A stretch of DNA of 64,000 nt from Eubacteriales bacterium (GCA_034933205.1 JAYFNY010000012.1:10671-74670), one strand, 5' to 3'. Positions 44,268-58,951 are shown, counted from the stretch's first letter. Made by a program: numbers and translations. Notes: generated by a model not told the origin, from the letters alone.

Positions 44268-45062
44268 TCAAAACGACGATGAGGAATGCTCAAAATGAGT
44301 GGCCGATTCCGTATTCCTGGCTAGAATCTGCTCAACCGAACCGACATCCAGCAGGTTTACCGTTTCAAATCGGCCGTTGTAAAACACGCCCCAATTATTA
44401 AAGACGCAGGGGAGTTCTTTTGCTTTTTTCAGCGAATCGACCGCAAGCAGCGAAAGAGGAATGTGGTTTCTCTCGCAGTATTGCTTCAGTTCTTCTGTCT
44501 TTTGGAGGATAAACGGGCATTGCATACTGTAATATATGGTCAACTCCGTTTGATCGATTCGCTGCTTCCGTGCTTTTTCTGTGAATCGAGGCGCCGTTCC
44601 GTCAAAAGAGAGCGCTAATAACTCATACCCGTCTTCCGTTGAGTCAACGGCCATAAATCCGTATTTTTTTGCGAATGCCTGACTGGAAAGCCAGTTTTTC
44701 TGTTTTTTTGACCCGAGCATGCAAATGCCGGATTTCCCGGCTTGTTTCGCATCCGCAATGCAGGAATCCATTAACGCTTTTCCATAGCCCTTGCCTTTAT
44801 ATTCGCCGGAAACCCATAAACAGTAGATATAGTAGAAATTTTCGCCGATCACCGGAACCCATGCCGTTTCAACCGGCGCGTATTCGATAAACACCGTGGA
44901 TTTCACATCCAGCTTTCGGAAAACATGACCTTCTTTGATTCGTTCGGAAAGCCAAGCCCTTTTCGCTTCTACACCCGGATGAGGCTTTTTACTCCGGATG
45001 ATACAGCACAGGTGCTCGCTGGCGATATTCGATGAAGTCAGGTCGATAAAATCATGCTCCAT
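44268..45062 (-). CDS. GNAT N-acetyltransferase with C-terminal YoaP-like domain
   Basis: YKGKGYGKALMD motif in the N-terminal half. The C-terminal ~90 aa (YYSMQCPF...NNWGVFYNGRF) resemble YoaP. Start taken at MEHDFIDL. Confidence 0.7.
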   Translation of the reverse strand: MEHDFIDLTSSNIASEHLCCIIRSKKPHPGVEAKRAWLSERIKEGHVFRKLDVKSTVFIEYAPVETAWVPVIGENFYYIYCLWVSGEYKGKGYGKALMDSCIADAKQAGKSGICMLGSKKQKNWLSSQAFAKKYGFMAVDSTEDGYELLALSFDGTAPRFTEKARKQRIDQTELTIYYSMQCPFILQKTEELKQYCERNHIPLSLLAVDSLKKAKELPCVFNNWGVFYNGRFETVNLLDVGSVEQILARNTESATHFEHSSSSF

Positions 45063-45151
45063 ATTTGGTTTCCTATTCTTGTGGGAATCCGATTCTTCTT
45101 CGGCGCCGCATCGCCAATGAAAGCGTTTTGCTTCGGTAACGATCAATCGAA

Positions 45152-45592
45152 TCAGCGTTCGAATTTTAAATAGACCATATCGACAAGCTGCGTCCCGTCT
45201 TCAAACATCGGATGATCGTAATGATCCGTGAAAAAGTTCTTGATTCGATGCGAATCGGTAAAACCGCAACTCTTGTAAAAATTCAAGGAAGAAGGGCAGT
45301 CGCCCGTTCCAACATACAGGACTTTGCAATCCGAATAATGAGCTGTCAGAAATTCGATTAATTTCTTCCCGTACCCTTTTCGCTGATCAACGGGATTTAC
45401 GGCGATATTTTTCAGCTCATAGACTCCATCCGATTCTTTCGTAACAACGCATTCCGCTTTTACGCCGTTATCGTCCAGTACAAACATATCGCCGCGGTCA
45501 AGATACAGATCTACCATGTCTTCCTGTTCGTCGGCGAGCAGAAGCAAATCGAGATAGTCCTTTTTCCGATTCAGGACCGGTCTGATATTCAT
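45152..45592 (-). CDS. GNAT family N-acetyltransferase
   Basis: 146 aa with QRKGYGKKLIEF motif. This is the last GC-rich gene before the compositional break. Confidence 0.85.
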   Translation of the reverse strand: MNIRPVLNRKKDYLDLLLLADEQEDMVDLYLDRGDMFVLDDNGVKAECVVTKESDGVYELKNIAVNPVDQRKGYGKKLIEFLTAHYSDCKVLYVGTGDCPSSLNFYKSCGFTDSHRIKNFFTDHYDHPMFEDGTQLVDMVYLKFER

Positions 45593-45662
45593 GAATCGTG
45601 GTTCTCCTTCAAGCTTTCCGTGCTTCTTTTCTCAATTCTCGACATTAGCACCACCGTTTCAA

Positions 45663-45910
45663 CGTGGCCCGATTGCTCCATCTTGATGTCTCCTTATTGA
45701 CCAGTTCTCGTGAACCTTCGATTTTCTGCCCATCCGTTCGCGGAAATTGTTCAACCGCTTTTTTCGGTTTGCGAAAACTTATCGACACGCTTTTGTACGT
45801 TCGCGGGAATTGCTCCACTGTTTGAACGTACCTTATATATGGCATCCGGGTCTGGCGTCCACTGTCTCCACCTTGACGCCGGATTGGTACAAGGGAATTG
45901 CTCCACGATT
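45663..45910. repeat. Four imperfect direct copies of a ~20-bp motif at the island boundary
   Basis: Minus-strand copies are GTGGAGCAATTCCCTTGTACC, GTGGAGCAATTCCCGCGAACG, GTTGAACAATTTCCGCGAACG and ATGGAGCAATCGGGCCACG. Spacing is 88, 63 and 74 bp. Confidence 0.5.
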
Positions 45911-45958: not shown

Positions 45959-46942
45959 TTATTTTTTGCTCTTCTTTTCCAGCTGCTTTATGCTATTCAG
46001 GTAGTCCTGCTCCACACTGCTCAATGTTTTCGCTTTGTATTTTTTATACTCCGTCTGCGCCTTGTCCATTGCCTGATCATGGCTGACAGTCCCATTTCCA
46101 ATCAGCAGCTTTTCTCCTGTGGAGGTCAAAATGCCATCAAGATGTCTGGCCCAGTCCTCCATCGTCATCGGAATCTCACGCTCTGCCTGTCTCTCAGCAA
46201 AATCAAGATATCCGGAAACGAGCTGGCCCATTGCGCGAAGCTCTTTTTCATTCAGATAGTTCTTTGCAGTCTTCGCTTCACGGAGCGTAGGCTGATCTCC
46301 TGAAAAAGTCATCAGACCCATGAAATCCTTTTCTGCGTCAGCACGATGATAGATCACCTCCGCCGCAGTCTCGCCGGAAACGGCATAATGGATCTTGTTT
46401 TGTACTCGCTTGAAAAATTGTATGGAGACTTCCGCATTAGGGTTGTAATCAACACTGGTCGCATAGATTTCCAATACCTGACGATAAAATACCTTTTCAG
46501 AAGCCCGGATGTCTCGGATTCTTTCCAACAGCTCCTTAAAGTATCCGCCACCGCCCAACTCTTTCAGGCGGTCATCATCCATCGCGAAACCTTTTTTGAT
46601 GTATTCCTTTAAAATGTTTGTTGCCCATATACGGAACTGAACACCACGCTGGGATTTGACACGATAGCCAACGGAGATGATAACATCCAGATTATAAAAT
46701 TTTGTTTTATAGTTTTTTCCGTCAGCACCAGTTGTCAAGCATTCCTTGACAACTGAAGCACTGTCAAGTTCTCCGTCCTTAAAAATATTATTTATATGCA
46801 GACTAACATTTTGCTTAGTCGTTTGAAAAAGCTTTGACATATCTGCCTGACTCAACCACACTGTTTCATCCTGCATAGTGACATCTATTTTTGTCAAACC
46901 GTCTTCAGTCTGATATATAATTACTTCTCCACGGTCGTCCAT
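45959..46942 (-). CDS. RhuM family virulence/defense-island protein
   Basis: N-terminus IIYQTEDGLTKIDVTMQDETVWLSQADMSKLFQTTKQNVSLHINNIF ... FYNLDVIISVGYRVKS.RGVQFRIWAT is the RhuM signature as I recall it. GGAGG RBS. Confidence 0.85.
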   Translation of the reverse strand: MDDRGEVIIYQTEDGLTKIDVTMQDETVWLSQADMSKLFQTTKQNVSLHINNIFKDGELDSASVVKECLTTGADGKNYKTKFYNLDVIISVGYRVKSQRGVQFRIWATNILKEYIKKGFAMDDDRLKELGGGGYFKELLERIRDIRASEKVFYRQVLEIYATSVDYNPNAEVSIQFFKRVQNKIHYAVSGETAAEVIYHRADAEKDFMGLMTFSGDQPTLREAKTAKNYLNEKELRAMGQLVSGYLDFAERQAEREIPMTMEDWARHLDGILTSTGEKLLIGNGTVSHDQAMDKAQTEYKKYKAKTLSSVEQDYLNSIKQLEKKSKK

Positions 46943-47364: not shown

Positions 47365-48072
47365 TTAGTTGTTCAGTGCTATCGATAGTTCTCCACCGAA
47401 ATTGTTCATTACGAAACGATCATCCTGCAACAAAGTTTCCTTGGTCACTCGATATTCGAATGGGAACAGATATGTTGAGGCGTTCAGCTCTTGAAAAGAA
47501 TAATATCCACTGTCATCCACATTCATCATGGTATAAACCAAAAAACTACTGATCTCATCTCTTGCAACCTTGTGCTTACTGATTCGGTATTTTCCGGGTT
47601 TGTCGCAAATGAGAACTCCAAACTCTTTTAGTGTGGATACCAGTTTGTCAATGGAGTGATATAGTGTCGTACGCTCTCCCCACTCATCAAACAGCTTCTG
47701 CTTCAGTTGGGCCAGCGTAATCTCATCCTGGAACTCTGACATTTTACCGATAAGTTTGCACATATCCATAAAAACCGGATAAGCCGCCAACATCATGCTC
47801 CAGTGAATTTCAAGCGCATAATCCGGATATTTCTTAATCAGTTCGAGTGCTGTAGGTCTTAATTTTTCTGTATATTCATTTTCATAGCTCCAGATGCACA
47901 TTAGAATTTCTCTGGTCTTACGAACATTTGTGGGACTCCCGATTTCAAAGCCCAAGTATTCATTCAATTTTTCTTTTATTTCATTCTCTGTCAACTCGCT
48001 CGAAACCAACTCCACGGCTTGATTCAACCATGATAGTTTCAAGTTTCTCGATAAGCCTACCATCTTTGCCAT
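47365..48072 (-). CDS. brxA: BrxA-like protein (DUF1819), last gene of the BREX type 3 set
   Basis: 235-aa helical protein. ATG follows the pglZ stop directly (TGAATG). The call rests mainly on position in the canonical type 3 order. Confidence 0.55.
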   Translation of the reverse strand: MAKMVGLSRNLKLSWLNQAVELVSSELTENEIKEKLNEYLGFEIGSPTNVRKTREILMCIWSYENEYTEKLRPTALELIKKYPDYALEIHWSMMLAAYPVFMDMCKLIGKMSEFQDEITLAQLKQKLFDEWGERTTLYHSIDKLVSTLKEFGVLICDKPGKYRISKHKVARDEISSFLVYTMMNVDDSGYYSFQELNASTYLFPFEYRVTKETLLQDDRFVMNNFGGELSIALNN

Positions 48073-49527
48073 TCACTTTACCGCCTTTATTTTGATAAAA
48101 GGTACTATGACCTCGTCAATTGATATGCCGCCGTGCGTCATGACTTCCTCGCCCTTGGCATCAAAGGAGTCTCCTACATCACAAATCAGATAATCGAAGT
48201 CCTTATTCAGATAATATTTCGGATATTCTATCATTCCATACTTTTGTATGAGTCCTGCTTTGTCAGCAAAGTTTTGTAGCACCAGCATTCTGTGGCTCTT
48301 TGTCTCTGTTTCCACTCCAGTACCCATTAATTTTCCAAGTCCAGTGCATGGCGTGTTTCCATGGTCTGCAGAGATATAAACATCAAAACCTTCTGAAAGA
48401 AACCGCTTTGTCATGTCTACCAGCTTATGCTGATCGGAGAGAACACCAATGTCATTTAGCATTCCCAGACGGCCTTGGTGCTGCGCATGCACCATATCAT
48501 CGACATCGTTAATTATGACCGCGCCACACTTTACAAAGGAGCCAAACTGCGCCTCGTAACCACGTTCATAACCTATCTGATTATCTGTATAGCCCATTGA
48601 TTTTGCACAGGCCACAAATTCCTGCTTTTCCTTGCTTTGTTTCCACGGCTCCAGCAGCTGACCTGGTGTTTTATTTGATAACAGGCACTGCCGTGAAATC
48701 GACGTGGTGCTTGGAATCATAGCAAACGCAGCTGTCTGCTCATATTGAACATTCTGAAAGGACTTAGAGATAATCCTCCAGTCAAATTCTGACATACCAT
48801 CCATTACTATAATCACAAATTTGCTGCTATGGTCGTGCATGTAATCCATCGCACGGCTAACAAGCACGGGTGTCTCCCGGCTCATTTCAGAGGACAGCTT
48901 ACCAAACTGCGCCAAAACATAATCTTTAAAAACTCTGTTTACGACTGAAGTGTCAACATTCAATTTGTGCTCAGTAGCAAGCGTATCAATCTTCGCCTTT
49001 ATCTCTGCAATGGCAAACCAATCACGATATGAATTAACTTGCTCCTGCTTCTGCTGCAATTCAATATCAAGCTGTTCAAGATACGCGGCAACATTTTCCG
49101 GGCTGTCAACCTTTTCCTGAATAAAGTCCTCCGTCTGTTTGCGCTGACGAAGATCGTCGAAATTCTTCAAATATGCTAAGCATAAAAGCTCCAGATCAAG
49201 GTTCCTGTGTGATTTCAAAACCTCAATATTCAACTTTGGAAACAGTCTGTCCATTGAAACAATATAAGCCCGAAGTCTTCGTTGAAGGTCATAGGGAATA
49301 TAGCTATTAGAATGTGCAAGTACCAGCAACTTGTCCTTTGTACTTTTCAGCTTACCCTCATACTCAATTCGAAAAGTCAAATCATCTGTATAATGCACCA
49401 CTTCAAAGCCATGCGCCTGAAAGTCAGCACTGTAATGAGTTGCTTCATCCAGTCCTTCGTCATCTATAAGGAGTATTCGATTGTTGTATTCTGCTGCTGC
49501 CTGTTTCAGCACATAGTCTCCAAACAT
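48073..49527 (-). CDS. pglZ: BREX PglZ-domain alkaline-phosphatase-superfamily protein
   Basis: PglZ core FVIIVMDGMSEFDW ... ISADHGN. The N-terminal ILLIDDEG... region is typical of PglZ N-domains. Confidence 0.8.
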   Translation of the reverse strand: MFGDYVLKQAAAEYNNRILLIDDEGLDEATHYSADFQAHGFEVVHYTDDLTFRIEYEGKLKSTKDKLLVLAHSNSYIPYDLQRRLRAYIVSMDRLFPKLNIEVLKSHRNLDLELLCLAYLKNFDDLRQRKQTEDFIQEKVDSPENVAAYLEQLDIELQQKQEQVNSYRDWFAIAEIKAKIDTLATEHKLNVDTSVVNRVFKDYVLAQFGKLSSEMSRETPVLVSRAMDYMHDHSSKFVIIVMDGMSEFDWRIISKSFQNVQYEQTAAFAMIPSTTSISRQCLLSNKTPGQLLEPWKQSKEKQEFVACAKSMGYTDNQIGYERGYEAQFGSFVKCGAVIINDVDDMVHAQHQGRLGMLNDIGVLSDQHKLVDMTKRFLSEGFDVYISADHGNTPCTGLGKLMGTGVETETKSHRMLVLQNFADKAGLIQKYGMIEYPKYYLNKDFDYLICDVGDSFDAKGEEVMTHGGISIDEVIVPFIKIKAVK

Positions 49528-49530
49528 GCG

Positions 49531-51279
49531 TTATGCCTCCAATCTGACTGCCAGCATCAAGCGGAAGTCCGGATACACTTGTGTACCTTTCTTATGCTCA
49601 GATTCAATGGTGGCCTTCTCTTTTTCCAGCTTCGCCAATCGGCCTCGGCGGATATTTTCTATTCCGATATGCTCAGCAGCTTCCATCCGGAGCTTTAAAG
49701 CATACATATATTTGTTATAGCTTTCCTGATTCAGCTGCAGTTGCTTCCCCTTCAATTCCATGAAGGTATCATAAGCGAATTCCATGCTGAGCTTCTCAAG
49801 ATTTTCATATTTCTCTGCCTTTATATTTGGAGCAGTTCCAATCGTCAAACGACTGGTGCCATCAAGGAAAACATCCATCAAACGCTTTCCTGCCATCGGA
49901 CGTAAAATCATATCATCATTTACAAAGATGGGGATAATACGCTTTCCGCTTTCATCATCAGATATAGAAAGCTCCCACAACATAAAATAACCGGCCTCAT
50001 TGGGGAAATTAGCAATGCTCACTGAAAGCAGCGGATTTGTTCTATCCTGAAGAATTTCTGTCCGCAAATGTTTTGTAATTTCTTCATCACCAATACTGAT
50101 ACGGTCAATCAGCCGAGGGTCATTGCCTTTCCAGCACTCATAATAGGTCATCATGGTACGAAGGGCCACATCCACATCAAAATCAGATTCTGTTCCAACC
50201 AGACGTGTCAAATCCTTTTCTTCACGGATAACATCCTTATATTTCTTTGCATTGGCGAGCTGCTGCTTCATCTCGGCTTCAACCGGATAGGTATTCTTTT
50301 CAACCTGTCCCGGATGACCAACGGAACGCATATAGACCTCAGTAAAATCACACTCAGCGACTTCGCTGTCTAAAACATCGGAGTATTTATCTACGCCCAT
50401 TTCCTTCAAAATTACAGACAACTTTTCTTCCAGCACTTCACGCACACGATTTTCCACTGTATCCGAAACGATAAAGTTATAAATATGTACGTCTCTCTGC
50501 TGGCCAATACGGTCTGCACGACCACAGCGCTGCTCGATTTTCATCGGGTTCCAAGGCAGATCATAGTTGACGATGATATTTGCAAACTGAAGGTTGAGAC
50601 CTTCCCCACCAGCATCAGTCGAAATAAAGATACTGGTACTGTTCTTGAATTCCTGCATAGCTTCGTTTCGTTCTTCGATATCCATGCTACCGTTTAAGAC
50701 CGTAACAGAGAAGCCGCGATTTGTCAGAAGCTCCTGCAGATATTTCTGTGTGGCAACAAACTCCGTGAAGATAATGATTTTCTGGGTCTTGTCATCGCTC
50801 ATTATGGCATCAATGGTTTCCAGTAACGGCTGTGTTACAAGACCGGTCGGACAAACCACAAGTACTCGGCTGACAAGTCCACGGCTCTTCAGTTCTTTGA
50901 CAATCATCCCGGCTTCGATCGTTTTGCCGAGACCAACTTCGTCCGCCAGAATATAGCGGATATTGTTTGTCTCCATTGCGCGATTGAGCACATGAAGCTG
51001 ATGCGGCAACGGGATAATACCGCTTGCCAGTGACGAAAGGAAGCCTCCGGCGGTCTCGTTTTTGATTTTTGAAAGCTGTACAACATATCGCAGATAATTC
51101 TCATCGTAGCGAATGCTACCGACTTCTGAATTCAATTGTTCTTCTGTCGCTTTGTAGACATGGCCGGTAGCCGGATTGAAAACCTTGTAGGAAACATAGC
51201 CCCATACTTCAATTTTCTCCAGTACCTGCACATTCGCTTGTTCCAGCGTGTCAAAAGCGAAATCGCCGATTTCCAGCAT
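49531..51279 (-). CDS. brxHII: BrxHII-like SNF2-family helicase lacking the DExH (motif II/III) segment
   Basis: Motif I LADEVGLGKT and motif Ia VVCPTGLVTQ run directly into helicase-C motifs (IIIFTEF..., STDAGGEGLNLQ, QRCGRADRIGQ). There is no DExH box anywhere in the 582 aa. Confidence 0.75.
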   Translation of the reverse strand: MLEIGDFAFDTLEQANVQVLEKIEVWGYVSYKVFNPATGHVYKATEEQLNSEVGSIRYDENYLRYVVQLSKIKNETAGGFLSSLASGIIPLPHQLHVLNRAMETNNIRYILADEVGLGKTIEAGMIVKELKSRGLVSRVLVVCPTGLVTQPLLETIDAIMSDDKTQKIIIFTEFVATQKYLQELLTNRGFSVTVLNGSMDIEERNEAMQEFKNSTSIFISTDAGGEGLNLQFANIIVNYDLPWNPMKIEQRCGRADRIGQQRDVHIYNFIVSDTVENRVREVLEEKLSVILKEMGVDKYSDVLDSEVAECDFTEVYMRSVGHPGQVEKNTYPVEAEMKQQLANAKKYKDVIREEKDLTRLVGTESDFDVDVALRTMMTYYECWKGNDPRLIDRISIGDEEITKHLRTEILQDRTNPLLSVSIANFPNEAGYFMLWELSISDDESGKRIIPIFVNDDMILRPMAGKRLMDVFLDGTSRLTIGTAPNIKAEKYENLEKLSMEFAYDTFMELKGKQLQLNQESYNKYMYALKLRMEAAEHIGIENIRRGRLAKLEKEKATIESEHKKGTQVYPDFRLMLAVRLEA

Positions 51280-51290
51280 TCCTCTTCACC

Positions 51291-53786
51291 TCAATCTTTG
51301 ATACGACCTAAGCTAATATCGTAGTACATCAAGAGATTTGCATCCTCCTGAATTGTCTGCTCCGGCAGACGCTCTGCAATGTCCACGATGGCCTTGTAGT
51401 TTTTGTCCTTCCACAGCCGAGAGAAGCCCACACGGACTGCTTCGGAACGGAACAGTTTGAGCTTGCCCTTGCTGCTCATATAACCTTCGAACTCTTTCCA
51501 GAGATTCTTCTCACGCAGTTTGGTAACGTCACCTTCTTTGGTCACATCAGGGATATACCAGCGGCCCTTCTCATCCTGAAGGAAGTTTTCTTCAAGAAGA
51601 ACAGCTAACTCTGGCATAGATTCATATTGATCTACTGACTTTACTTCCTGCATGAACTTTGGCTGAAGCTGTGCGTATGTCTGTGGCCCGTCAAAATCTT
51701 CGCTAAGTTGTTGATAAAGCCAAGAAATTGCAGTTTTTTCATTTGTAACAAATAAACTGAATTGGATAGGCTCAACATCCGCCTTGATTCGAGCTTTATC
51801 ATACTCGTTTACTTGGTTTGGCAGGAAATACATGTCATCGCGTTTCAAATACCTGCTATCCAGTCCCCTGAAAAAACTTGTAGAGTCGATAGGTACAGCA
51901 ATTCCTTGCACGATATGATATGCCACCATTCTGTCGTAAAGCAAATATGCTTGACGTTCTGTTACGATTTTTATTTTATCATCCTGAATAACGACTTTTG
52001 GTACCTTTTCAAGATGTTGCCGGACAAAGTCCCACACTGTTTCCTCACTACCAATATCTTGAGAGAATTTTTTGCGAAACTCGCCCATAGGTTTATATGC
52101 TGAAATTACCAAATCCTGTTTTATTGCCTGACTTGCTTCTTTTACTTGGTTAAAGCTATCTCGCTTTTTATCCAAAACTCTGACATCTGCCACAACAAAT
52201 CCTGCAGATTGTATTGCTTCCTGAATTGAATTCCACACAGCATTTTTTGAATTATGAAATTCAATAGTAATCCAACGACCAGGCTTGAGAATCCTACAGT
52301 CCTCCAAAAAACAATTTGACATTAACTGTTGATAATCCAAAAGATTCTTTCCATGAAGTTGGCTTACAATCGCCTCCCTTTTTTCATTCGTAAATACATT
52401 AAGCCAAGATTCCCATATAAAATTCAGTTCCGAATACATGATATTGCTTCCAAAAGGAGGGTCAGTAAAAATATAATCAATAGTATTATCCGGAATCTGA
52501 GGAACCGCAGTTGAACTTTGGGTTGTAATCAATACATTTCCTTCGGAATAATTTGAGTAAGCCTTTGAATAATCTCGAACTGCATCTCTGAATTGATTGA
52601 TAATGTTCAGTTCCTTCACCAACGATGGTATATAAAGCGTTCCTGGAGTAGGGCCGCCTCCTGCGCCCCATGTGCCACTTTGATATGTCAATGCATATCG
52701 CTTAGTCATTCTAAATAACAGCTTTGAGACAATACTTTTTATTCTCAAACTACCATTTGTCCAGAGATAACTTAATGCCAAAAGAGAACGTTTATAGTAA
52801 AATTGATATGATCGTGTAATTCCACGCGTAATGGCTTCTTGAGTCTTTTCTCCATTTGGTATAATCGCGATTGGAATAAAGCCTTCCACCGGAGTATCCT
52901 CTATCTTTTTGATAATATCGAGGTCATATTCATCGGTTTTTTTGGTACCGCGTGCAGCACCACTATATCCGATAAACACTGGGATTTGCTTGTAGGTTTT
53001 GATTGTCTCTCCTATTATTTTGTCATATGAAATTTCAATCGCATGCTGACAGTCATTCTTTTTCAATTTAGCACCACAAGATTGGCAACTAAACTGTGTA
53101 GGTATTTTCCCATTTTCAACATCCACGGCTTCATCCCAGAAGACGAACTCATGCCCACAATGCGGACAAATGAAAACATCAGACCATACGCAAGAGTCTA
53201 CATTGGCCAATACAGTACCGTCGACTTTTGTCTTATACATCCAACCGTACTTTTTTTCACATTCGTCTGCAAGTCTTTGAGCCTCTTTAAAAACCTTATC
53301 GAAGCTATATGATTGGTTGTATGCGTTAGAAATAAATGTAGCTTCGGGAGAAATATCACAAATAATCGCTTTCCGTGGTTCAGTTGGATGAAAAAGGCTA
53401 CCCTCTCCGCATAATTGAGCTGCAACACCAGTCATCCCCGTTCCGCAAAAACCGTCAAAAACAAGGTCACCAGGTTTCGTGTAATGCTCCAAATATTTAA
53501 CAATTGCCGCATGAGGAACTTTTGTATGATAAGGATGCATTCTATACACTGGATTATATTTACCTTCACTTACATCCGCAGCAAAAGGCTCGCAATGATA
53601 GTCATCCGTTGCTTCATCGTAAGGAGTCCCATTTTCCCTGATGAATTCATCTATAAATGGATTAGGACATGCCGTATAAAACGGTGCATTTGAAAGAGCA
53701 ATGATATCTTCATCCTTGGCAATCGGAAAGCCCTCAATGTCGCGAACTTTGTCGATATCCTCTTTCGTTAATTTTCTTGGTTCCAT
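51291..53786 (-). CDS. pglXI: BREX type 3 DNA methyltransferase PglXI (N6-adenine type motifs)
   Basis: SAM motif I VFDGFCGTGMTG (aa ~110) and motif IV TDPPFG (aa ~441). A Cys4 ribbon lies between them (CPHCGHEF...CQSCGAK). Confidence 0.85.
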   Translation of the reverse strand: MEPRKLTKEDIDKVRDIEGFPIAKDEDIIALSNAPFYTACPNPFIDEFIRENGTPYDEATDDYHCEPFAADVSEGKYNPVYRMHPYHTKVPHAAIVKYLEHYTKPGDLVFDGFCGTGMTGVAAQLCGEGSLFHPTEPRKAIICDISPEATFISNAYNQSYSFDKVFKEAQRLADECEKKYGWMYKTKVDGTVLANVDSCVWSDVFICPHCGHEFVFWDEAVDVENGKIPTQFSCQSCGAKLKKNDCQHAIEISYDKIIGETIKTYKQIPVFIGYSGAARGTKKTDEYDLDIIKKIEDTPVEGFIPIAIIPNGEKTQEAITRGITRSYQFYYKRSLLALSYLWTNGSLRIKSIVSKLLFRMTKRYALTYQSGTWGAGGGPTPGTLYIPSLVKELNIINQFRDAVRDYSKAYSNYSEGNVLITTQSSTAVPQIPDNTIDYIFTDPPFGSNIMYSELNFIWESWLNVFTNEKREAIVSQLHGKNLLDYQQLMSNCFLEDCRILKPGRWITIEFHNSKNAVWNSIQEAIQSAGFVVADVRVLDKKRDSFNQVKEASQAIKQDLVISAYKPMGEFRKKFSQDIGSEETVWDFVRQHLEKVPKVVIQDDKIKIVTERQAYLLYDRMVAYHIVQGIAVPIDSTSFFRGLDSRYLKRDDMYFLPNQVNEYDKARIKADVEPIQFSLFVTNEKTAISWLYQQLSEDFDGPQTYAQLQPKFMQEVKSVDQYESMPELAVLLEENFLQDEKGRWYIPDVTKEGDVTKLREKNLWKEFEGYMSSKGKLKLFRSEAVRVGFSRLWKDKNYKAIVDIAERLPEQTIQEDANLLMYYDISLGRIKD

Positions 53787-53788
53787 CG

Positions 53789-54619
53789 TTACACCTCACT
53801 ATCTTTCCGCTTCACTACGATACGCAGTTTAGCTGCATCTTTTCCCTTGATATAAGACTCCACAATGCTATTCAGCTTGTTCTTGAATGTAGCCACATCA
53901 CAAGGGCCAAGCTCATCCAGCTTTGCAACTATATCCTCCGTATCGATAACCACTGGCTCAAAGCCCTGAAGCAGCGCCTTGATGCTATTCACGAAGTGAT
54001 CGTCTACATGCTTTGGCAGTGTTTTGGTGGAAATAAACTCATCGATGACCTTCTGCTGTTCCGCACTCAAGTACTCCTTCTGGCTAACCACAATCGGGTC
54101 AGAGATTGTGTTGAGCAGCGTATTTGTCCATTCCGTCACCAAATCATCCATGCGAATATCAATGTTGTCCAGTTGCCCGGCTACATTTTTTGCCTTGTCG
54201 CCATAGGTATAGTGGCAGTGAGGGCAAATGTGACTTGTCTTCAACTCAACAGGTGTTAGTTCATAACAGACCTTCAGATCAGCCATATCCTGTTCAATGG
54301 CAGTCAGCTTTGCACCTGAAAGGATCTCTATGCTACGCAGCTTGCGCAGATTTGCCAGTGCAACACTTTCCTGCAATTTTCCACGGCGCTTTGCATCCTC
54401 GATGTCAAGGCGCTTTTTCTTATGCTCCTCAAAGTACATCGTAATGTATTTATCTTTCAGTTTATCCAGTTCGGTCGTAACCTTCTGCGCTGCCGTTTCA
54501 CCGGAAGCGCCATCTGCGATGTCGTCTCTGATTTCGCGAAAGGCTGCCTTTCCGGCCTCAAGCTCCTGCTTGAAAACTGCTCCAAGATCAAGGAACTCAA
54601 TATTAGCAATATAGCTCAC
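53789..54619 (-). CDS. brxC: Probable C-terminal fragment of BrxC (split gene); GTG start may be fortuitous
   Basis: 276-aa helical protein with CPHCHYTY. Added to the upstream 5' fragment it reaches the ~1200+ aa expected for a type 3 BrxC. Its stop is 2 nt from the pglXI start. Confidence 0.5.
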   Translation of the reverse strand: MSYIANIEFLDLGAVFKQELEAGKAAFREIRDDIADGASGETAAQKVTTELDKLKDKYITMYFEEHKKKRLDIEDAKRRGKLQESVALANLRKLRSIEILSGAKLTAIEQDMADLKVCYELTPVELKTSHICPHCHYTYGDKAKNVAGQLDNIDIRMDDLVTEWTNTLLNTISDPIVVSQKEYLSAEQQKVIDEFISTKTLPKHVDDHFVNSIKALLQGFEPVVIDTEDIVAKLDELGPCDVATFKNKLNSIVESYIKGKDAAKLRIVVKRKDSEV

Positions 54620-54659
54620 AACTGCAGAGCAATCTGTCTTTCGTAATTATTTCATTCAA

Positions 54660-55904
54660 CTATTCAACCAGGCAGCGTGGCATCGGTATTTTGGACGCTA
54701 TGAATGCTGAAATCCCGAGAGGCACTATATAAGTCACCGGGAAGCACAGCAGAAGCACAGCGATAACTGTCACAGGCTTTCTCATTATATATCCATATAT
54801 GGCACCGCACACAACTGCTACTGCATATGCCCCATCCATTCCTGTCATCAGTGCAAAAGCAAATCCAATGGCTACTCCCGAGAAAATTATAGGGAATATG
54901 CTTCCACCTCTCCAACCCATATTCAGGCAGAAATTGACCAGGAATAGCTTGCACACTGCGATAACGAAAAGCACCGATACGCTCATTGTCTGCCAATCTG
55001 CCATAATTGTACCCATATCGGTTTCTCCCGACAACATTGTAAGGGGTACGTACCAGCCTACCAAAGCAAGCACCGCTCCGCCAAGCATGCATCTTACAAT
55101 TATGTGATCTTTCAACTTATTGCCAATCATTGATGTCAGCTTATTGAATATCAAATATATAAATGCTCCGGCAATACCTGCGAGTATCAATGGGATTATC
55201 CATTTCCACTGTTCAATGCCGTAGCCATGTGCTCTGTCAAATCTTGAAAGGCCCATTCCGCCGCCAAGGACTGCAGTCAGTCCTTTTACGATCAACATCC
55301 CCCCTGCTACTCCGCACACATAAACAAATATTCTGGTTTTTTTATCGACAAGCTTTGCCTTGTAATGTTCGTTTTCATTATCGGGTTCAAGGCTGTCGAT
55401 TATTCCAAATAACGGCGATCCAAAAATCACTCCCAGCGTAGCGGACATGCCTGTTTCCGCCAGCGCAGCCACTTTTTCTCCTTTGTACCTGAGTCTGTCA
55501 CCTACCAGGCAGCAAAGCCCGGCTATTATGCCGGTAAGACCTGCTTCAGGTCCTAATGCCCCGCCGAAGATCAACGGGAGCAATGCAGACACCGCCAGAA
55601 TATGAAGATTATCATATGGGTATCTACCGTCTTTGTGAATCTTTCCCAAAACTACAGGCAGCTCATCTGGAAGCAGTCCGTATTTTTTCTGCCACAAACC
55701 TATAAGGCATCCTCCGATGAGGCATACCGTCATGAAGTATATCAGGCTGCCGTCAGCGTTGAACTTTTCCGGCAGCCAAGTCCAGAAAAACTCAATGCCA
55801 AGATCCATTATTTTCAATATCAACCATACTATCGCCCCCGAAGCAGCTCCAAGTATAAATGATAAAATACCAAAAGCAACTATACTGATTATTTTTTTCA
55901 TCAT
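54660..55904 (-). CDS. ClC-family (voltage-gated chloride channel superfamily) membrane protein
   Basis: 414-aa polytopic protein with ClC selectivity-filter-like motifs GGALGPEAG, FGSPLFG and RGGSIFP. Confidence 0.85.
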   Translation of the reverse strand: MMKKIISIVAFGILSFILGAASGAIVWLILKIMDLGIEFFWTWLPEKFNADGSLIYFMTVCLIGGCLIGLWQKKYGLLPDELPVVLGKIHKDGRYPYDNLHILAVSALLPLIFGGALGPEAGLTGIIAGLCCLVGDRLRYKGEKVAALAETGMSATLGVIFGSPLFGIIDSLEPDNENEHYKAKLVDKKTRIFVYVCGVAGGMLIVKGLTAVLGGGMGLSRFDRAHGYGIEQWKWIIPLILAGIAGAFIYLIFNKLTSMIGNKLKDHIIVRCMLGGAVLALVGWYVPLTMLSGETDMGTIMADWQTMSVSVLFVIAVCKLFLVNFCLNMGWRGGSIFPIIFSGVAIGFAFALMTGMDGAYAVAVVCGAIYGYIMRKPVTVIAVLLLCFPVTYIVPLGISAFIASKIPMPRCLVE

Positions 55905-55917
55905 TCAATTCTCCAAT

Positions 55918-55945
55918 ATTATATAGCATAACACTTGCAAATCAA
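55918..55945 (-). promoter_or_regulatory. Candidate promoter of the ClC gene
   Basis: The minus strand reads TTGATT-16 nt-TATAAT, then GGAG 6 nt before ATGATG. It lies inside the AT-rich tail of the brxC 5' fragment ORF. Confidence 0.45.
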
Positions 55946-55964
55946 TTATTCCATTGAAATCATA

Positions 55965-58937
55965 TCAACAAAATCGAAATTTAACAATGCGATTTTTTAA
56001 GTTTTTACGCATAAAATCCAACTGACATTCTATCAATGGCTTTGAATTTCTTTGGTATATAATCATTTGTAGACAAAACGAACAGTAGTCTTTGAAGGTC
56101 ACATACTCGGCGACGGTTTTGATGAGTGCAATTTGTTCTGCCAGTTCATCAACCTGTTCTCCGGTCAGACTAAAGTTGTTCAACTTCGCTGGTGTGTTAT
56201 ATTTTGCCGAGTAGTTGCTGAACTCGTCACGAACGGCAGTGCAGGCTTTCTGCATCCTATCAACCTGTTGCGCGTTTGCAAGCGGCTCACCCCAGAGTTC
56301 GAAGCCCTCCTGCAGCTTGCGTGCAGCCAGAACAGAGGAATTGCTCAGTTCCTGAGCCTTTGCAAGTAGCTGTTTCACACCTTCCTCACGGTCATTCGGA
56401 TTATCCAGCAGCGCGCCATTGATATCCAGCACCTCAAACAGCTTCTTCAGCTCCACCATAGAAATCTGAGCCGGTCTGGACAGATACTTGAACTCGTACA
56501 AATCCATAACGCCCAGCTTCGATACCTGGTCGAGATTTGAGGCCGTGATGACGGTTCCACTCTTCAGGGTCATCGTTGCATAACCGGCATAAACCATAGA
56601 CAGAAATACAATCGGTGTAAACAGAAAGCTGATCTTGAACTTCTTATCTTCAAACACATCGCCAAACTTCAACTCAAAAATGTCGGAATAGTTGATAACG
56701 CCCTGCGGCGGCAGCTTTTTGAGTAAATCAATAAAGTAAGCAGCATACTTGGAACCTTCCGGACGGATTTTATCGCCATCCAGAATGCCAAAACTCTGCA
56801 GCATCAGTGTTGCAGGTTGCGTCTTGCGTCCTGCAAAGTAATCAAAGGCCTGACGGGCATTTTCTGCCATGTTCTTTCTGGTTACCTTGGTCTTCATGAC
56901 AGGGAACTCCGGATAAATGCTGTCGAAGTATTCATCGAGGCAAACCGATGCTGCAAGGTCAACGGTATCCTTGAAATCCATGTCTCTGTTGTAGCGGCCT
57001 TTCAGCACTTCAATCATCTGGCGTTTTTGGCCCTTATACTGCACTTCAAAGCATGTGTTCTTATTCTCGCCCAAGTACTTGATAAGTCTCTTGCGCACCA
57101 TACCAGCCTTGTTCAGATAGGCATCCTTATCCTTGCCCTCACTGATCTGCGCCAGAGAGTTGGCTGCGGCAAACAGACCGAGCAGCTCCTTAAATTCGTC
57201 TGAGGACTTAAAGAAGAAATACACTTCATCTTCCAGATTTTTCACAGCGATTGTAGTTGCGCTGTACGGCGGCATGATGTGGATATAGAAATCTCTCTCC
57301 GGCTGGGCCGTGCTACGTTCTCCCGGCAGGCCAAGGAACAGATAGCCTTCACGGAAAATGTTATGGGAATCCCAATTCAGGTCTCGCTGGTAGATTTCAA
57401 AGCCCGGAACGTACTGCTTTGCGTCCCAATCCAGACATCCATAAACCAACTGATAGAAGAATCGATTCAACTCGCTATCTGCCATAACAGAAGCTTTCTG
57501 CTTAATCTTCTCGTCATAGTCAACAACCTTGTCCACGTCAATGTAGTACTGATTGTTGCCGTCATTGAAGATGATGAACTGACCGGAAACGGTGGTCATG
57601 ATATCCTTCAAAGTTGTCTTAATCAGAGAAAGCAGAAAGTCTGCATCCTGCTCCGGCATCGGCAGGAAAAGGCACAGATCGTCCTTCATATTTTCAGCAG
57701 TCAGGCCGAATTGTACATCCAGACCATTTGTGGTCAAACGGTGCACACTCAGCGCATAAATAATCTTGATTGCCAACGGTTTATAAGCTGGCTTCGGGAA
57801 AGCACGATTAATAATGTCCTCCAACTGCCCGCTGGCAGTAACGACACGATTGATGGTTACATCACTCTTCAGCAGTCCATTGGACTTGATTGCAGGCCAG
57901 TAATCATCGAAAGAAATAATGCCCGGTGCATTTTCCGGCACTTCTGTATCAAAAATATCCCGAATAGTCGTGGAAATATTCTTCAGAATGTGTCTGTTCT
58001 CAATCAGGTAAATCTTATTAAACACATCAATGTACGAAGGATGAATAGGATACAGATCTACAAACTCCTCCAAGCGAGAGGACATACCTGTATAGAGATT
58101 GGAGAACTTCTCCAGATGCTTACGAATCAAGGCCTTCTGCTCCGGTGACTTTTTCAGAATACGCTCGGAAACAACGTAGGATGTGGCTTCCTTGGTGATG
58201 ATAAGTTGTGTGAAACGGTCAGATACATGCTTCAACGTATCTGAAACGAAGCTGAATCTTGGATTGTCGAAAATCTTCTCCTGCACGCCAAAGATGACGC
58301 GGAGCTTGCTCTTGGAGCACATTTCTCCCAGTGCACGGAAGAACTCCAGATCAAGAACAATCTGGCGCTCGTCACGGGATGTCAAATAAGAAAGGAACTC
58401 ATCAACTACAATCAGATAGCCCTTGTCCGGATATTTTTCAGCGAAAGCAATCATCATATCCTGAATTACTTTTTTGGGATTCCGAACAGTGGCCTGCTCC
58501 GGGAATTCGAAGTCGATATTCCTTTTATCAAAGTCATCCTGAATGTAGCCCGACAGAATATCATAAAGTGACATAGTAACGCCACCAATTTCAATGCGCA
58601 GCACTTCAAATTTGCCTGCGATGCATTCCACATCTTTTGCAAAGGTCTTATTCTGCAGATACTGCAAATTGTCTGCATCTTTAGCAATGGAGGAGATAAC
58701 ACTCATCAAGTGAGATTTACCAGTACCATAGTTACCAACAATAAGCACGCCTTTATTATCAACGACCTCATCCATTTGCAGTTGGTCGATAACCGGTGCT
58801 TTCATACTCTGCGCCATGCCCTCAGACATCACGTAGGTCTTAATGTTATTGATTTCCTCTGCCTTATTGCTGTTGGACTGAATCAACTGCAAGGTAGATT
58901 CAATCGGACTAAAGCTAATAAGCTCTGAATATTTCAT
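55965..58937 (-). CDS. brxC: BREX type 3 BrxC/PglY-like P-loop ATPase, N-terminal ~950 aa, with an apparently foreign ~39-aa tail
   Basis: Walker A LIVGNYGTGKSH and Walker B-like YLIVVDEF. ATG at 58937 lies 8 nt after AAGGAGGA. The last ~39 codons (CSFCLQMIIYQRNSK...) lie in very AT-rich DNA that also holds the ClC promoter. Confidence 0.75.
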   Translation of the reverse strand: MKYSELISFSPIESTLQLIQSNSNKAEEINNIKTYVMSEGMAQSMKAPVIDQLQMDEVVDNKGVLIVGNYGTGKSHLMSVISSIAKDADNLQYLQNKTFAKDVECIAGKFEVLRIEIGGVTMSLYDILSGYIQDDFDKRNIDFEFPEQATVRNPKKVIQDMMIAFAEKYPDKGYLIVVDEFLSYLTSRDERQIVLDLEFFRALGEMCSKSKLRVIFGVQEKIFDNPRFSFVSDTLKHVSDRFTQLIITKEATSYVVSERILKKSPEQKALIRKHLEKFSNLYTGMSSRLEEFVDLYPIHPSYIDVFNKIYLIENRHILKNISTTIRDIFDTEVPENAPGIISFDDYWPAIKSNGLLKSDVTINRVVTASGQLEDIINRAFPKPAYKPLAIKIIYALSVHRLTTNGLDVQFGLTAENMKDDLCLFLPMPEQDADFLLSLIKTTLKDIMTTVSGQFIIFNDGNNQYYIDVDKVVDYDEKIKQKASVMADSELNRFFYQLVYGCLDWDAKQYVPGFEIYQRDLNWDSHNIFREGYLFLGLPGERSTAQPERDFYIHIMPPYSATTIAVKNLEDEVYFFFKSSDEFKELLGLFAAANSLAQISEGKDKDAYLNKAGMVRKRLIKYLGENKNTCFEVQYKGQKRQMIEVLKGRYNRDMDFKDTVDLAASVCLDEYFDSIYPEFPVMKTKVTRKNMAENARQAFDYFAGRKTQPATLMLQSFGILDGDKIRPEGSKYAAYFIDLLKKLPPQGVINYSDIFELKFGDVFEDKKFKISFLFTPIVFLSMVYAGYATMTLKSGTVITASNLDQVSKLGVMDLYEFKYLSRPAQISMVELKKLFEVLDINGALLDNPNDREEGVKQLLAKAQELSNSSVLAARKLQEGFELWGEPLANAQQVDRMQKACTAVRDEFSNYSAKYNTPAKLNNFSLTGEQVDELAEQIALIKTVAEYVTFKDYCSFCLQMIIYQRNSKPLIECQLDFMRKNLKNRIVKFRFC

Positions 58938-58951
58938 CTCGCATTTCCTCC

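Follow-up and report, generated by a model that had tools for sequence, protein, structure and literature searches.

The 64,000-nucleotide stretch analysed here (the window), from a Eubacteriales bacterium (GCA_034933205.1, JAYFNY010000012.1:10671-74670), carries a type 3 BREX (bacteriophage exclusion) operon whose brxC gene was, very probably, inactivated by a clean insertion of 1,453 bp, the channel gene brought in by the insertion being cargo and the system being defunct. A first-pass annotation of the sequence had already suggested that brxC is split by a channel-bearing segment, and had offered inactivation by insertion as one of two possibilities. The split is supported by the matching DUF6079 coverage of the two parts. 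Inactivation, rather than the alternative of a working two-piece protein, is favoured by the intact orthologues of 1,231 residues, by the gap-free alignment of the fused pieces to them, by a near-isogenic empty site and by additional lesions in the downstream BREX genes of sibling contigs and of the window. The features needed to follow the argument are listed below.

56094..58937, minus strand: native 5' part of brxC, encoding BrxC residues 1-949, counted from the ATG at 58937
55965-58964, minus strand: large P-loop open reading frame (ORF), 999 residues from a GTG or 990 residues from the ATG at 58937
54641..56093, minus strand: inserted foreign segment of 1,453 bp, AAAGACTACTG...AATAATTACGA on the minus strand, with AA at both junctions
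55965..56093, minus strand: foreign-encoded tail of the truncated BrxC, 41 codons and a stop codon by translation
55918..55945, minus strand: sigma-70-like promoter TTGATT-16-TATAAT of the ClC gene, agreeing with the consensus at 10/12 positions
54660..55904, minus strand: gene of a ClC-family (YfeO-like) membrane protein, 414 residues, Pfam Voltage_CLC 1.9e-29
53789..54640, minus strand: native 3' part of brxC, encoding BrxC residues 950-1231
53789-54619, minus strand: 276-residue ORF starting at the GTG at 54619, the first in-frame start codon of the brxC 3' part

Two pieces of a single brxC

In Pfam searches, residues 10-962 of the large ORF correspond to positions 1-967 of the 1238 of the DUF6079 profile and residues 2-270 of the 276-residue ORF to positions 971-1238, so that both ORFs are parts of one BrxC from which essentially nothing is missing; the 5' part matches, in addition, positions 1-953 of the PADLOC BrxC model PDLC02482. 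The fusion of the pieces is 1,231 residues long, in agreement with the expectation that a full BrxC of about 1200 residues or more would approximate the sum of the fragments, and it aligns without gaps with intact orthologues at 95-97% identity, the closest named one being that of Eisenbergiella tayi (WP_009252807). This alignment to full-length proteins, which had been proposed as a check, locates the break between residues 949 and 950, with no residue missing. The best 120 BrxC relatives listed (78-97% identical) are all single proteins, nearly all of 1,219-1,239 residues, and none of them ends at the end of the 5' fragment; homologues ending there and accompanied by a conserved 276-residue protein, as a normal two-gene arrangement would show, were thus not among them. 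Compared with the single-chain BrxC ATPase of about 1,230 residues (1,224-1,231 in the intact orthologues), the window protein is interrupted at residues 949/950, a point that falls inside the fifth DUF6079 domain according to precomputed Pfam domain calls and beyond which the 3' piece still matches this domain weakly.

After its native part, the truncated protein is prolonged by a foreign tail (DYCSFC...RFC) whose AT-rich nature had been recognised, although it comprises 41 codons and not 39. The composition profile drops to a GC content of 0.33-0.37 around 55600-56200, and the promoter (55945-55918) and the ribosome-binding site described in or after the tail for the ClC gene are both present. 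The description of the 276-residue ORF also holds, with its GTG start, 9 further open codons upstream and an end 2 nt before the start of pglXI; no Shine-Dalgarno-like sequence lies 5-12 nt from this GTG.

Exact anatomy of the insertion

Comparison of the window with three contigs carrying the empty site (L015, L016 and L036) establishes that the insert is exactly 1,453 bp long (window 54641-56093, minus strand, in a placement that can be shifted by up to 2 nt given the AA at both ends) and that no brxC base was lost, the target dinucleotide AA being found at both junctions. The segment originally delimited at 54620-56090, of about 1.4 kb, is therefore real, but its bounds were not those. The three loci without the ClC gene, whose comparison had also been proposed, are uninterrupted and read TTCAAGACAGAT at the site. 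In the JGI metagenome contig L036 the uninterrupted site is GTGACCTTCAAGACAGATTGC, within the context ...GAGTATGTGACCTTCAAGACAGATTGCTCTGCAGTTGTGAGC..., and to its left 129 nt (56092-56220, a stretch that takes in the AA shared with the insert) agree with the window at 100% identity. The reading frame of the empty site is GTGACCTTC-AAG-ACA/C-GAT, which in L015 and L016 takes the form GTGACCTTC-AAG-ACC-GAT across the break point. The overlap is of 2 nt (AA) at the left junction and of 3 nt (AAG) at the right one. Regarding the marks of a mobile element, the reported lack of a transposase and of inverted repeats stands, while the reported lack of a target duplication has to be qualified, since a minimal AA duplication or overlap of 2 nt was found. 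A longer target duplication of 6 bp (AAAGAC) was considered and rejected, given that the empty site is TTCAAGACAGAT, and a deletion between the flanking AAGAC repeats would not reverse the insertion precisely, as it would leave a +1 frameshift.

The channel gene

The assignment of the 414-residue product to the ClC family was correct: the Voltage_CLC match (PF00654) reaches 103.4 bits against a gathering cut-off of 24.8, and residues 65-404 cover profile positions 2-342 of 346. The best NCBIfam match, below cut-off, is PRK03655 ("ion channel protein"), and a sequence search against solved structures returned no match at 1e-3. The protein shares with the ClC/YfeO-like proteins of Clostridia the Voltage_CLC match over nearly its whole length, an identity of 58-89% to chromosomal homologues and the GPEAG and GSIFP motifs, and differs from them in that its gene has moved from a chromosomal neighbourhood into accessory islands. 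In contrast to the ClC-F fluoride exporters, which are found under a fluoride riboswitch, its leader has no riboswitch (an Rfam E-value scan of 53000-57500 gave nothing relevant, be it fluoride/crcB or other). The ATG is preceded by a GGAG ribosome-binding site, and there is no terminator-like site 3' of the gene on its strand. As the promoter is intact and no terminator follows, the channel may still be expressed.

The alleles of this gene point to weak or absent constraint. The window allele encodes S220 (codon 220, nucleotide 55247) in place of the proline found in 10 of 10 homologues and retained in some sibling copies, and the island alleles differ from one another by 1-3 residues, mostly at sites that are invariant in the ten homologues (K74E, P119L, E120V, E173K, E179G, Y195F, G218D and T379A, with P119 and E120 belonging to the GPEAG motif). 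In the available DNA, the changes in the cassette are three non-synonymous to one synonymous. The channel is read as cargo, a hitch-hiking gene and not a defence effector.

Source of the inserted DNA

Outside this operon, 1,456 bp (54638-56093) recur with 100% identity amid unrelated flanks in L002, L003, L005 and L011. An arrangement from a Lachnospiraceae metagenome-assembled genome (context B) has these 1,456 bp with 100% identity, and another one (context C) has them with 99.7%. In both contexts the homologous DNA runs past the boundaries of the window's insert on its two sides, which makes the insert a sub-fragment of passenger DNA. A remnant ORF (...FYEKNGFHKAGYQITKGKTTVRFVYK*) reads across the left boundary of the insert in contexts B and C, and its last codons, KTTVRFVYK* (56063-56092), overlap the tail of the truncated BrxC. 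Homology to the native upstream region of a ClC gene encoding an 89%-identical protein (L017) begins at about 55958, from which it follows that the promoter is native to the ClC gene; on the right side of context B, the homology covers the native 3' flank of the 89%-identical gene up to the start of its downstream neighbour. More distant homologues (58-79% identical) occupy ordinary chromosomal settings, either by spoIVB and spo0A or by catalase and Fur. By these sequence comparisons, the insert is a sub-fragment of a chromosomal gene that was captured and is now carried along, as a passenger, by accessory regions.

In context C the order is a helix-turn-helix (HTH) gene, the remnant ORF, ClC, a 54-residue gene, a 113-residue gene, a major facilitator superfamily (MFS) transporter and, on the opposite strand, hsdM. 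Context B is a C-like segment that lacks the 1.97 kb between two 7-nt ATGATAC repeats and now abuts an element of the insertion sequence (IS) family IS21. There (L003 4884-9695 and 11376-14488) the ClC fragment comes after an HKD-SNF2 helicase, a DUF4391 protein and a 304-residue ORF, followed by the IS21 element; the shared fragment supplies the 304-residue ORF with its six final codons and its stop, so this ORF is probably truncated. The native chromosome of origin of the fragment was not found, contexts B and C being mosaics themselves. A megablast search with 53700-56400 gave no match in plasmids or phages, neither viral contigs nor the JGI metagenome collection contained an exact copy of the left end of the cassette, and a protein search with the 43-residue remnant ORF gave no homologue. 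The remnant ORF had been considered as the tail of a GNAT acetyltransferase on account of an FYEKNGF motif, a label that Pfam did not confirm; the GNAT genes of the window (44268-45592) are unrelated to it.

How was the fragment inserted?

The insert has none of the marks of a conventional mobile element. A repeat search found no terminal inverted repeats, the insert contains no transposase gene, and its two ends, on both strands, fold no more stably than shuffled sequences (z = 0.09 to 1.0), which leaves no hairpin or attC-like end. DDE-type IS elements, miniature inverted-repeat transposable elements and composite transposons do not fit an insert without inverted repeats, with junctions sharing only AA and with ClC as its sole gene, and neither do the IS200/IS605-type elements and integron cassettes, as no subterminal hairpins and no palindromic (attC) site are present. 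In addition, other rearrangements in these islands have short microhomologies at their ends (2 nt, AG, at the junction of a deletion in brxHII and the 7-nt ATGATAC repeat at the deletion of context B), so that microhomology-mediated rearrangement is common in them. The lack of mobile-element marks, the junction overlaps of 2-3 nt and these other rearrangements favour a microhomology-mediated illegitimate recombination, by templated insertion or end joining, as the route by which the fragment would have entered brxC.

A conservative integration of a 1,453-bp circle through a 2-bp crossover would be an alternative route. According to it, the unit would be a non-autonomous mobile cassette that is excised as a circle and integrated by a conservative recombinase acting in trans, and its insertion in brxC would be a true transposition. 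This explanation, which we regard as unlikely, draws on the fact that AA flanks the unit in the donor arrangement (context C) too, exactly 1,453 bp apart, the very length of the insert, with the target AA at both junctions and nothing lost; the lack of inverted repeats and of a long target duplication is what such elements would show. Moreover, the donor arrangement contains an exact 11-bp direct repeat, AATTACGAAAG (L003 9800-9810 and 11257-11267; L030 539-549 and 1996-2006), of which one copy ends 1 nt before the left boundary of the insert and the other lies at its right end (window 54638-54648), which brings both cut points to within 1-4 nt of a copy, and a 16-nt motif occurs three times nearby. 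However, between the repeats and the AA positions suited to a conservative exchange there is an offset of 4 nt, an exact 11-mer repeat is not unusual in 1.7 kb of AT-rich DNA (about 0.3 expected, by estimate), the half-sites have no similarity to each other, no recombinase gene is linked to the unit, and no circle was found. Furthermore, its left boundary is inside a remnant ORF that reads through in contexts B and C, a single insertion event is known, and overlaps of 2-3 nt are equally typical of microhomology joining. Matches to AATTACGAAAG elsewhere in the window are not enriched (5 were found, and 5/100 shuffles reached 5), and the idea that recombination between the 11-bp repeats released a circle of 1,457 bp, which then entered brxC by a single crossover, was discarded, since the insert measures 1,453 bp and not 1,457 bp. 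A mobile cassette predicts a circular joint ...AATTACGA-AA-AGACTACTG... (also written ...GAAATAATTACGA-AA-AGACTACTGTTCG...) and a donor scar ...CAAATTACGAAAGG-AA-GCTAGTATGATAC.... The unit presumably resembles the serine-recombinase elements (IS607 family, Tn4451/Tn5397). That likeness is purely geometric (no inverted repeats, an apparent 2-bp crossover, no target loss and an arithmetic compatible with a circle), whereas the absence of a recombinase gene and of shared end motifs sets the unit apart, and with a single event known it would be a candidate member at most.

Could the insertion be instead an assembly chimera, formed via a repeat shared between genomes? The cassette is indeed a 1.45-kb repeat present in at least three contexts, and in one contig (L025 1-3553) the brxC 5' part and the cassette are followed by the right flank of context C instead of the brxC 3' part, this contig being either an assembly chimera via the shared repeat or a real recombinant. 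Nevertheless, the window spans both brxC junctions, and these recur in over 20 contigs obtained from different samples and with different assemblers (ENA, JGI, Logan, NCBI), including one of 614 kb at about 158x coverage and a pilon-polished one of 535 kb, which reduces the probability of an artefact to practically nothing.

Further lesions in the operon

Over the 12-kb operon the sibling contigs show 99.95-100% identity, and the brxC::ClC junctions are the same in all of them. Most of them, as well as the window, have other BREX lesions in addition, given here by window position:

52682: pglXI Q369*, in five contigs (L007, L008, L009, L020, L021)
52061: pglXI Q576*, in two contigs (L006, L009)
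51761: 5-nt insertion in pglXI causing a frameshift, in L010
from 52345: replacement or deletion from the middle of pglXI through brxA, in L004, L014, L034 and L035
50830/50831: junction of the 924-nt brxHII deletion, in the window, L001, L006 and L010
brxC 5' part: extra deletion, in L024

The brxHII deletion is in frame and removes residues 151-458 of the SNF2 ATPase core, relative to L007, so that an intact BrxHII is lacking in the window (582 residues, against 890 in L007 and L016); the full 890-residue protein is encoded in L007-L009, in L020-L021 and in the related intact locus L016. In L023, pglXI is intact and brxHII undeleted as far as the contig extends (at least 754 of 890 codons), and because this contig carries only the brxC lesion in the part covered, the brxC insertion is placed before the others. 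Among the point changes of BREX genes within the clonal frame, none but the two nonsense mutations of pglXI is non-synonymous. This gene appears to be lost faster than neutral decay predicts (p ~1e-3, a rough binomial estimate), which suggests a cost of pglXI that arises with the breakage of BrxC or with read-through from the ClC promoter.

When L024 and L026 are compared with the window at 53790-56560, the brxC flanks show dense, near-entirely synonymous differences and the cassette is nearly identical, implying recombination with functional brxC alleles during which the insertion was kept.

Proposed course of events and its alternatives

On a mobile island of a Lachnospiraceae-like gut bacterium, a single insertion would have placed a fragment of passenger DNA between codons 949 and 950 of brxC. 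This fragment, consisting of the last nine codons of the remnant ORF, an AT-rich spacer of about 130 bp, ClC together with its native promoter and ribosome-binding site, and 19 nt of the 3' flank of ClC, would be a piece of a larger segment with the ClC gene, one that also circulates elsewhere, in regions of accessory or defence type (contexts B and C). BrxC would then be truncated to residues 1-949 plus a nonsense tail of 41 residues, its last 282 residues would be left without a usable translation start, and the ClC promoter, being unterminated, probably reads into pglXI-brxHII-pglZ-brxA. In the end, BREX would be defunct and its remaining genes in the process of being lost.

The opposite idea, also contained in the first-pass annotation, is that this lineage runs a functional variant in which BrxC consists of two polypeptides and ClC was recruited into the BREX-3 operon as a membrane-depolarising abortive-infection effector. 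We consider it very improbable, even though no brxC residue was removed, the 3' ORF is open, the allele is common, L023 has no other lesion in the part covered and the ClC promoter, with no terminator after the gene, could express the downstream genes. The relatives of BrxC listed are all single-chain, the other BREX-3 loci examined have no ClC gene at this position or elsewhere, the homologues of the channel are chromosomal and the same cassette occurs in non-BREX contexts. Besides, the 3' piece of brxC has no ribosome-binding site, the break falls inside a domain, most siblings and the window carry additional disabling lesions, and the ClC variants affect invariant residues, including the glutamate of GPEAG. 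A different possibility is that the disruption of BREX was itself favoured by selection instead of being neutral decay, for instance because BREX hinders the spread of the island or the uptake of DNA by the host or, in a variant of the same idea, because the truncated BrxC or the internal promoter is harmful and selects pglXI knock-outs. This is a tentative explanation, to be taken seriously although somewhat unlikely. Among near-clonal siblings (at least 99.95% identical over 12 kb), 2 of about 6 independent single-base changes in BREX are pglXI nonsense mutations, the same gene is also frameshifted and deleted, the other point changes are synonymous and the allele is widespread. In a type 1 BREX system, partial genotypes are reported to be unstable or toxic, and the C-terminus of BrxC to be needed for restriction and not for modification (PMC9009780); a 2026 study locates a dimerisation domain at the BrxC C-terminus in type 1 systems (PMC13326643); the extension of these type 1 results to type 3 would be by analogy, and they may not transfer. 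The case for selection is also weakened by the small counts, by the low coverage of some contigs and by the presence of Q576* on two backgrounds, for which recombination or mixed assemblies could be responsible. A combined scenario, in which the promoter and ClC form a transposase-less cassette that moves between defence islands via a small circle and an AA crossover, and in which the brxC insertion was selected as a "switched-off or rewired" BREX whose promoter and truncated BrxC then drove the loss of pglXI, seems to us quite improbable.

Inactivation of brxC by a clean insertion of cargo DNA is thus the preferred explanation, against which several observations have to be counted. In the window, pglXI, pglZ, brxA and brxF are intact. 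The disrupted allele is widespread, with 326 blocks of the assembly collection indexed for the exact ClC protein, and the retention of the insertion despite the recombination of its flanks (L024, L026) also fits a selected allele. Simple microhomology joining gives no explanation for the direct repeat AATTACGAAAG near the cut points, only one insertion event in brxC is known, from which a mechanism is not inferable statistically, and metagenome assemblies can collapse a shared cassette, making the links between ClC haplotypes and contexts unreliable.

The BREX operon and its surroundings

The type 3 BREX genes identified by PADLOC and Pfam are in the canonical order brxF-brxC-pglXI-brxHII-pglZ-brxA, all on the minus strand, at 47365-59374, and the intact orthologous locus L016 has the same layout. 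Apart from brxC, they are the following:

58952..59374, minus strand: brxF, 140 residues, first gene of the operon; PADLOC BrxF 1.1e-17
51291..53786, minus strand: pglXI methyltransferase, 831 residues; PADLOC PglXI E = 0
49531..51279, minus strand: brxHII helicase, 582 residues
48073..49527, minus strand: pglZ, 484 residues, of the same length in L016; PADLOC PglZ 5.3e-66
47365..48072, minus strand: brxA, 235 residues, last gene of the operon; PADLOC BrxA 1.7e-55

The window is therefore like other type 3 loci in having all six signature genes, each with a strong PADLOC or Pfam match, and unlike them in its brxC, which 1,453 bp of foreign DNA interrupt, and in its brxHII, which lacks 308 internal residues: it is a decaying BREX-3 copy and not a working system.

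Just upstream of brxF (59405-61929) lie a gene for an AAA_13 ATPase (766 residues; PADLOC candidate PDC-S06, 2.5e-208), a homologue of which is present in context B, and a small ORF (59405-59617) whose sibling equivalent is an HTH_26/HTH_3 protein; the pair may constitute a second defence gene and its regulator. On the other side, L001, L006 and L010 match the window only to about 45640-45665, just past a rhuM gene (45959-46942). This point is probably the end of the mobile island, and the two GNAT acetyltransferase genes (44268-45592) are immediately outside it. At position 62955, the window has T where every sibling contig covering the position has C (minus strand).

Implications

Defence-system callers would report a complete BREX-3 here and the embedded channel could be mistaken for an effector, neither of which would be correct, as brxC and brxHII are both disrupted and the channel came in as cargo. 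The outcome is an ordinary insertional pseudogene. As in defence genes inactivated by IS elements, a single clean insertion cuts the ORF short and appends a few nonsense codons, and the operon then gathers lesions; unlike in them, there are no transposase or inverted repeats, the overlap is of 2 nt and the inserted content is a promoter-bearing fragment of a housekeeping-type gene. It is only in this content and in the lack of mobile-element hallmarks that the case is unusual.

The repeated, independent knock-outs of pglXI after the brxC lesion in near-clonal siblings provide natural-population evidence for costly partial BREX-3 genotypes, with which laboratory work on type 1 agrees (PMC9009780). 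As for the inserted DNA, a promoter-bearing gene fragment has moved with base precision and without recognisable machinery, and it is now found in three contexts within accessory regions. Two of these contexts, at the least, are defence loci, one being the BREX-3 operon and the other the helicase-DUF4391 locus, with a candidate defence match. The movement of this ClC fragment is, in that sense, a small case study of the mosaicism of defence islands.

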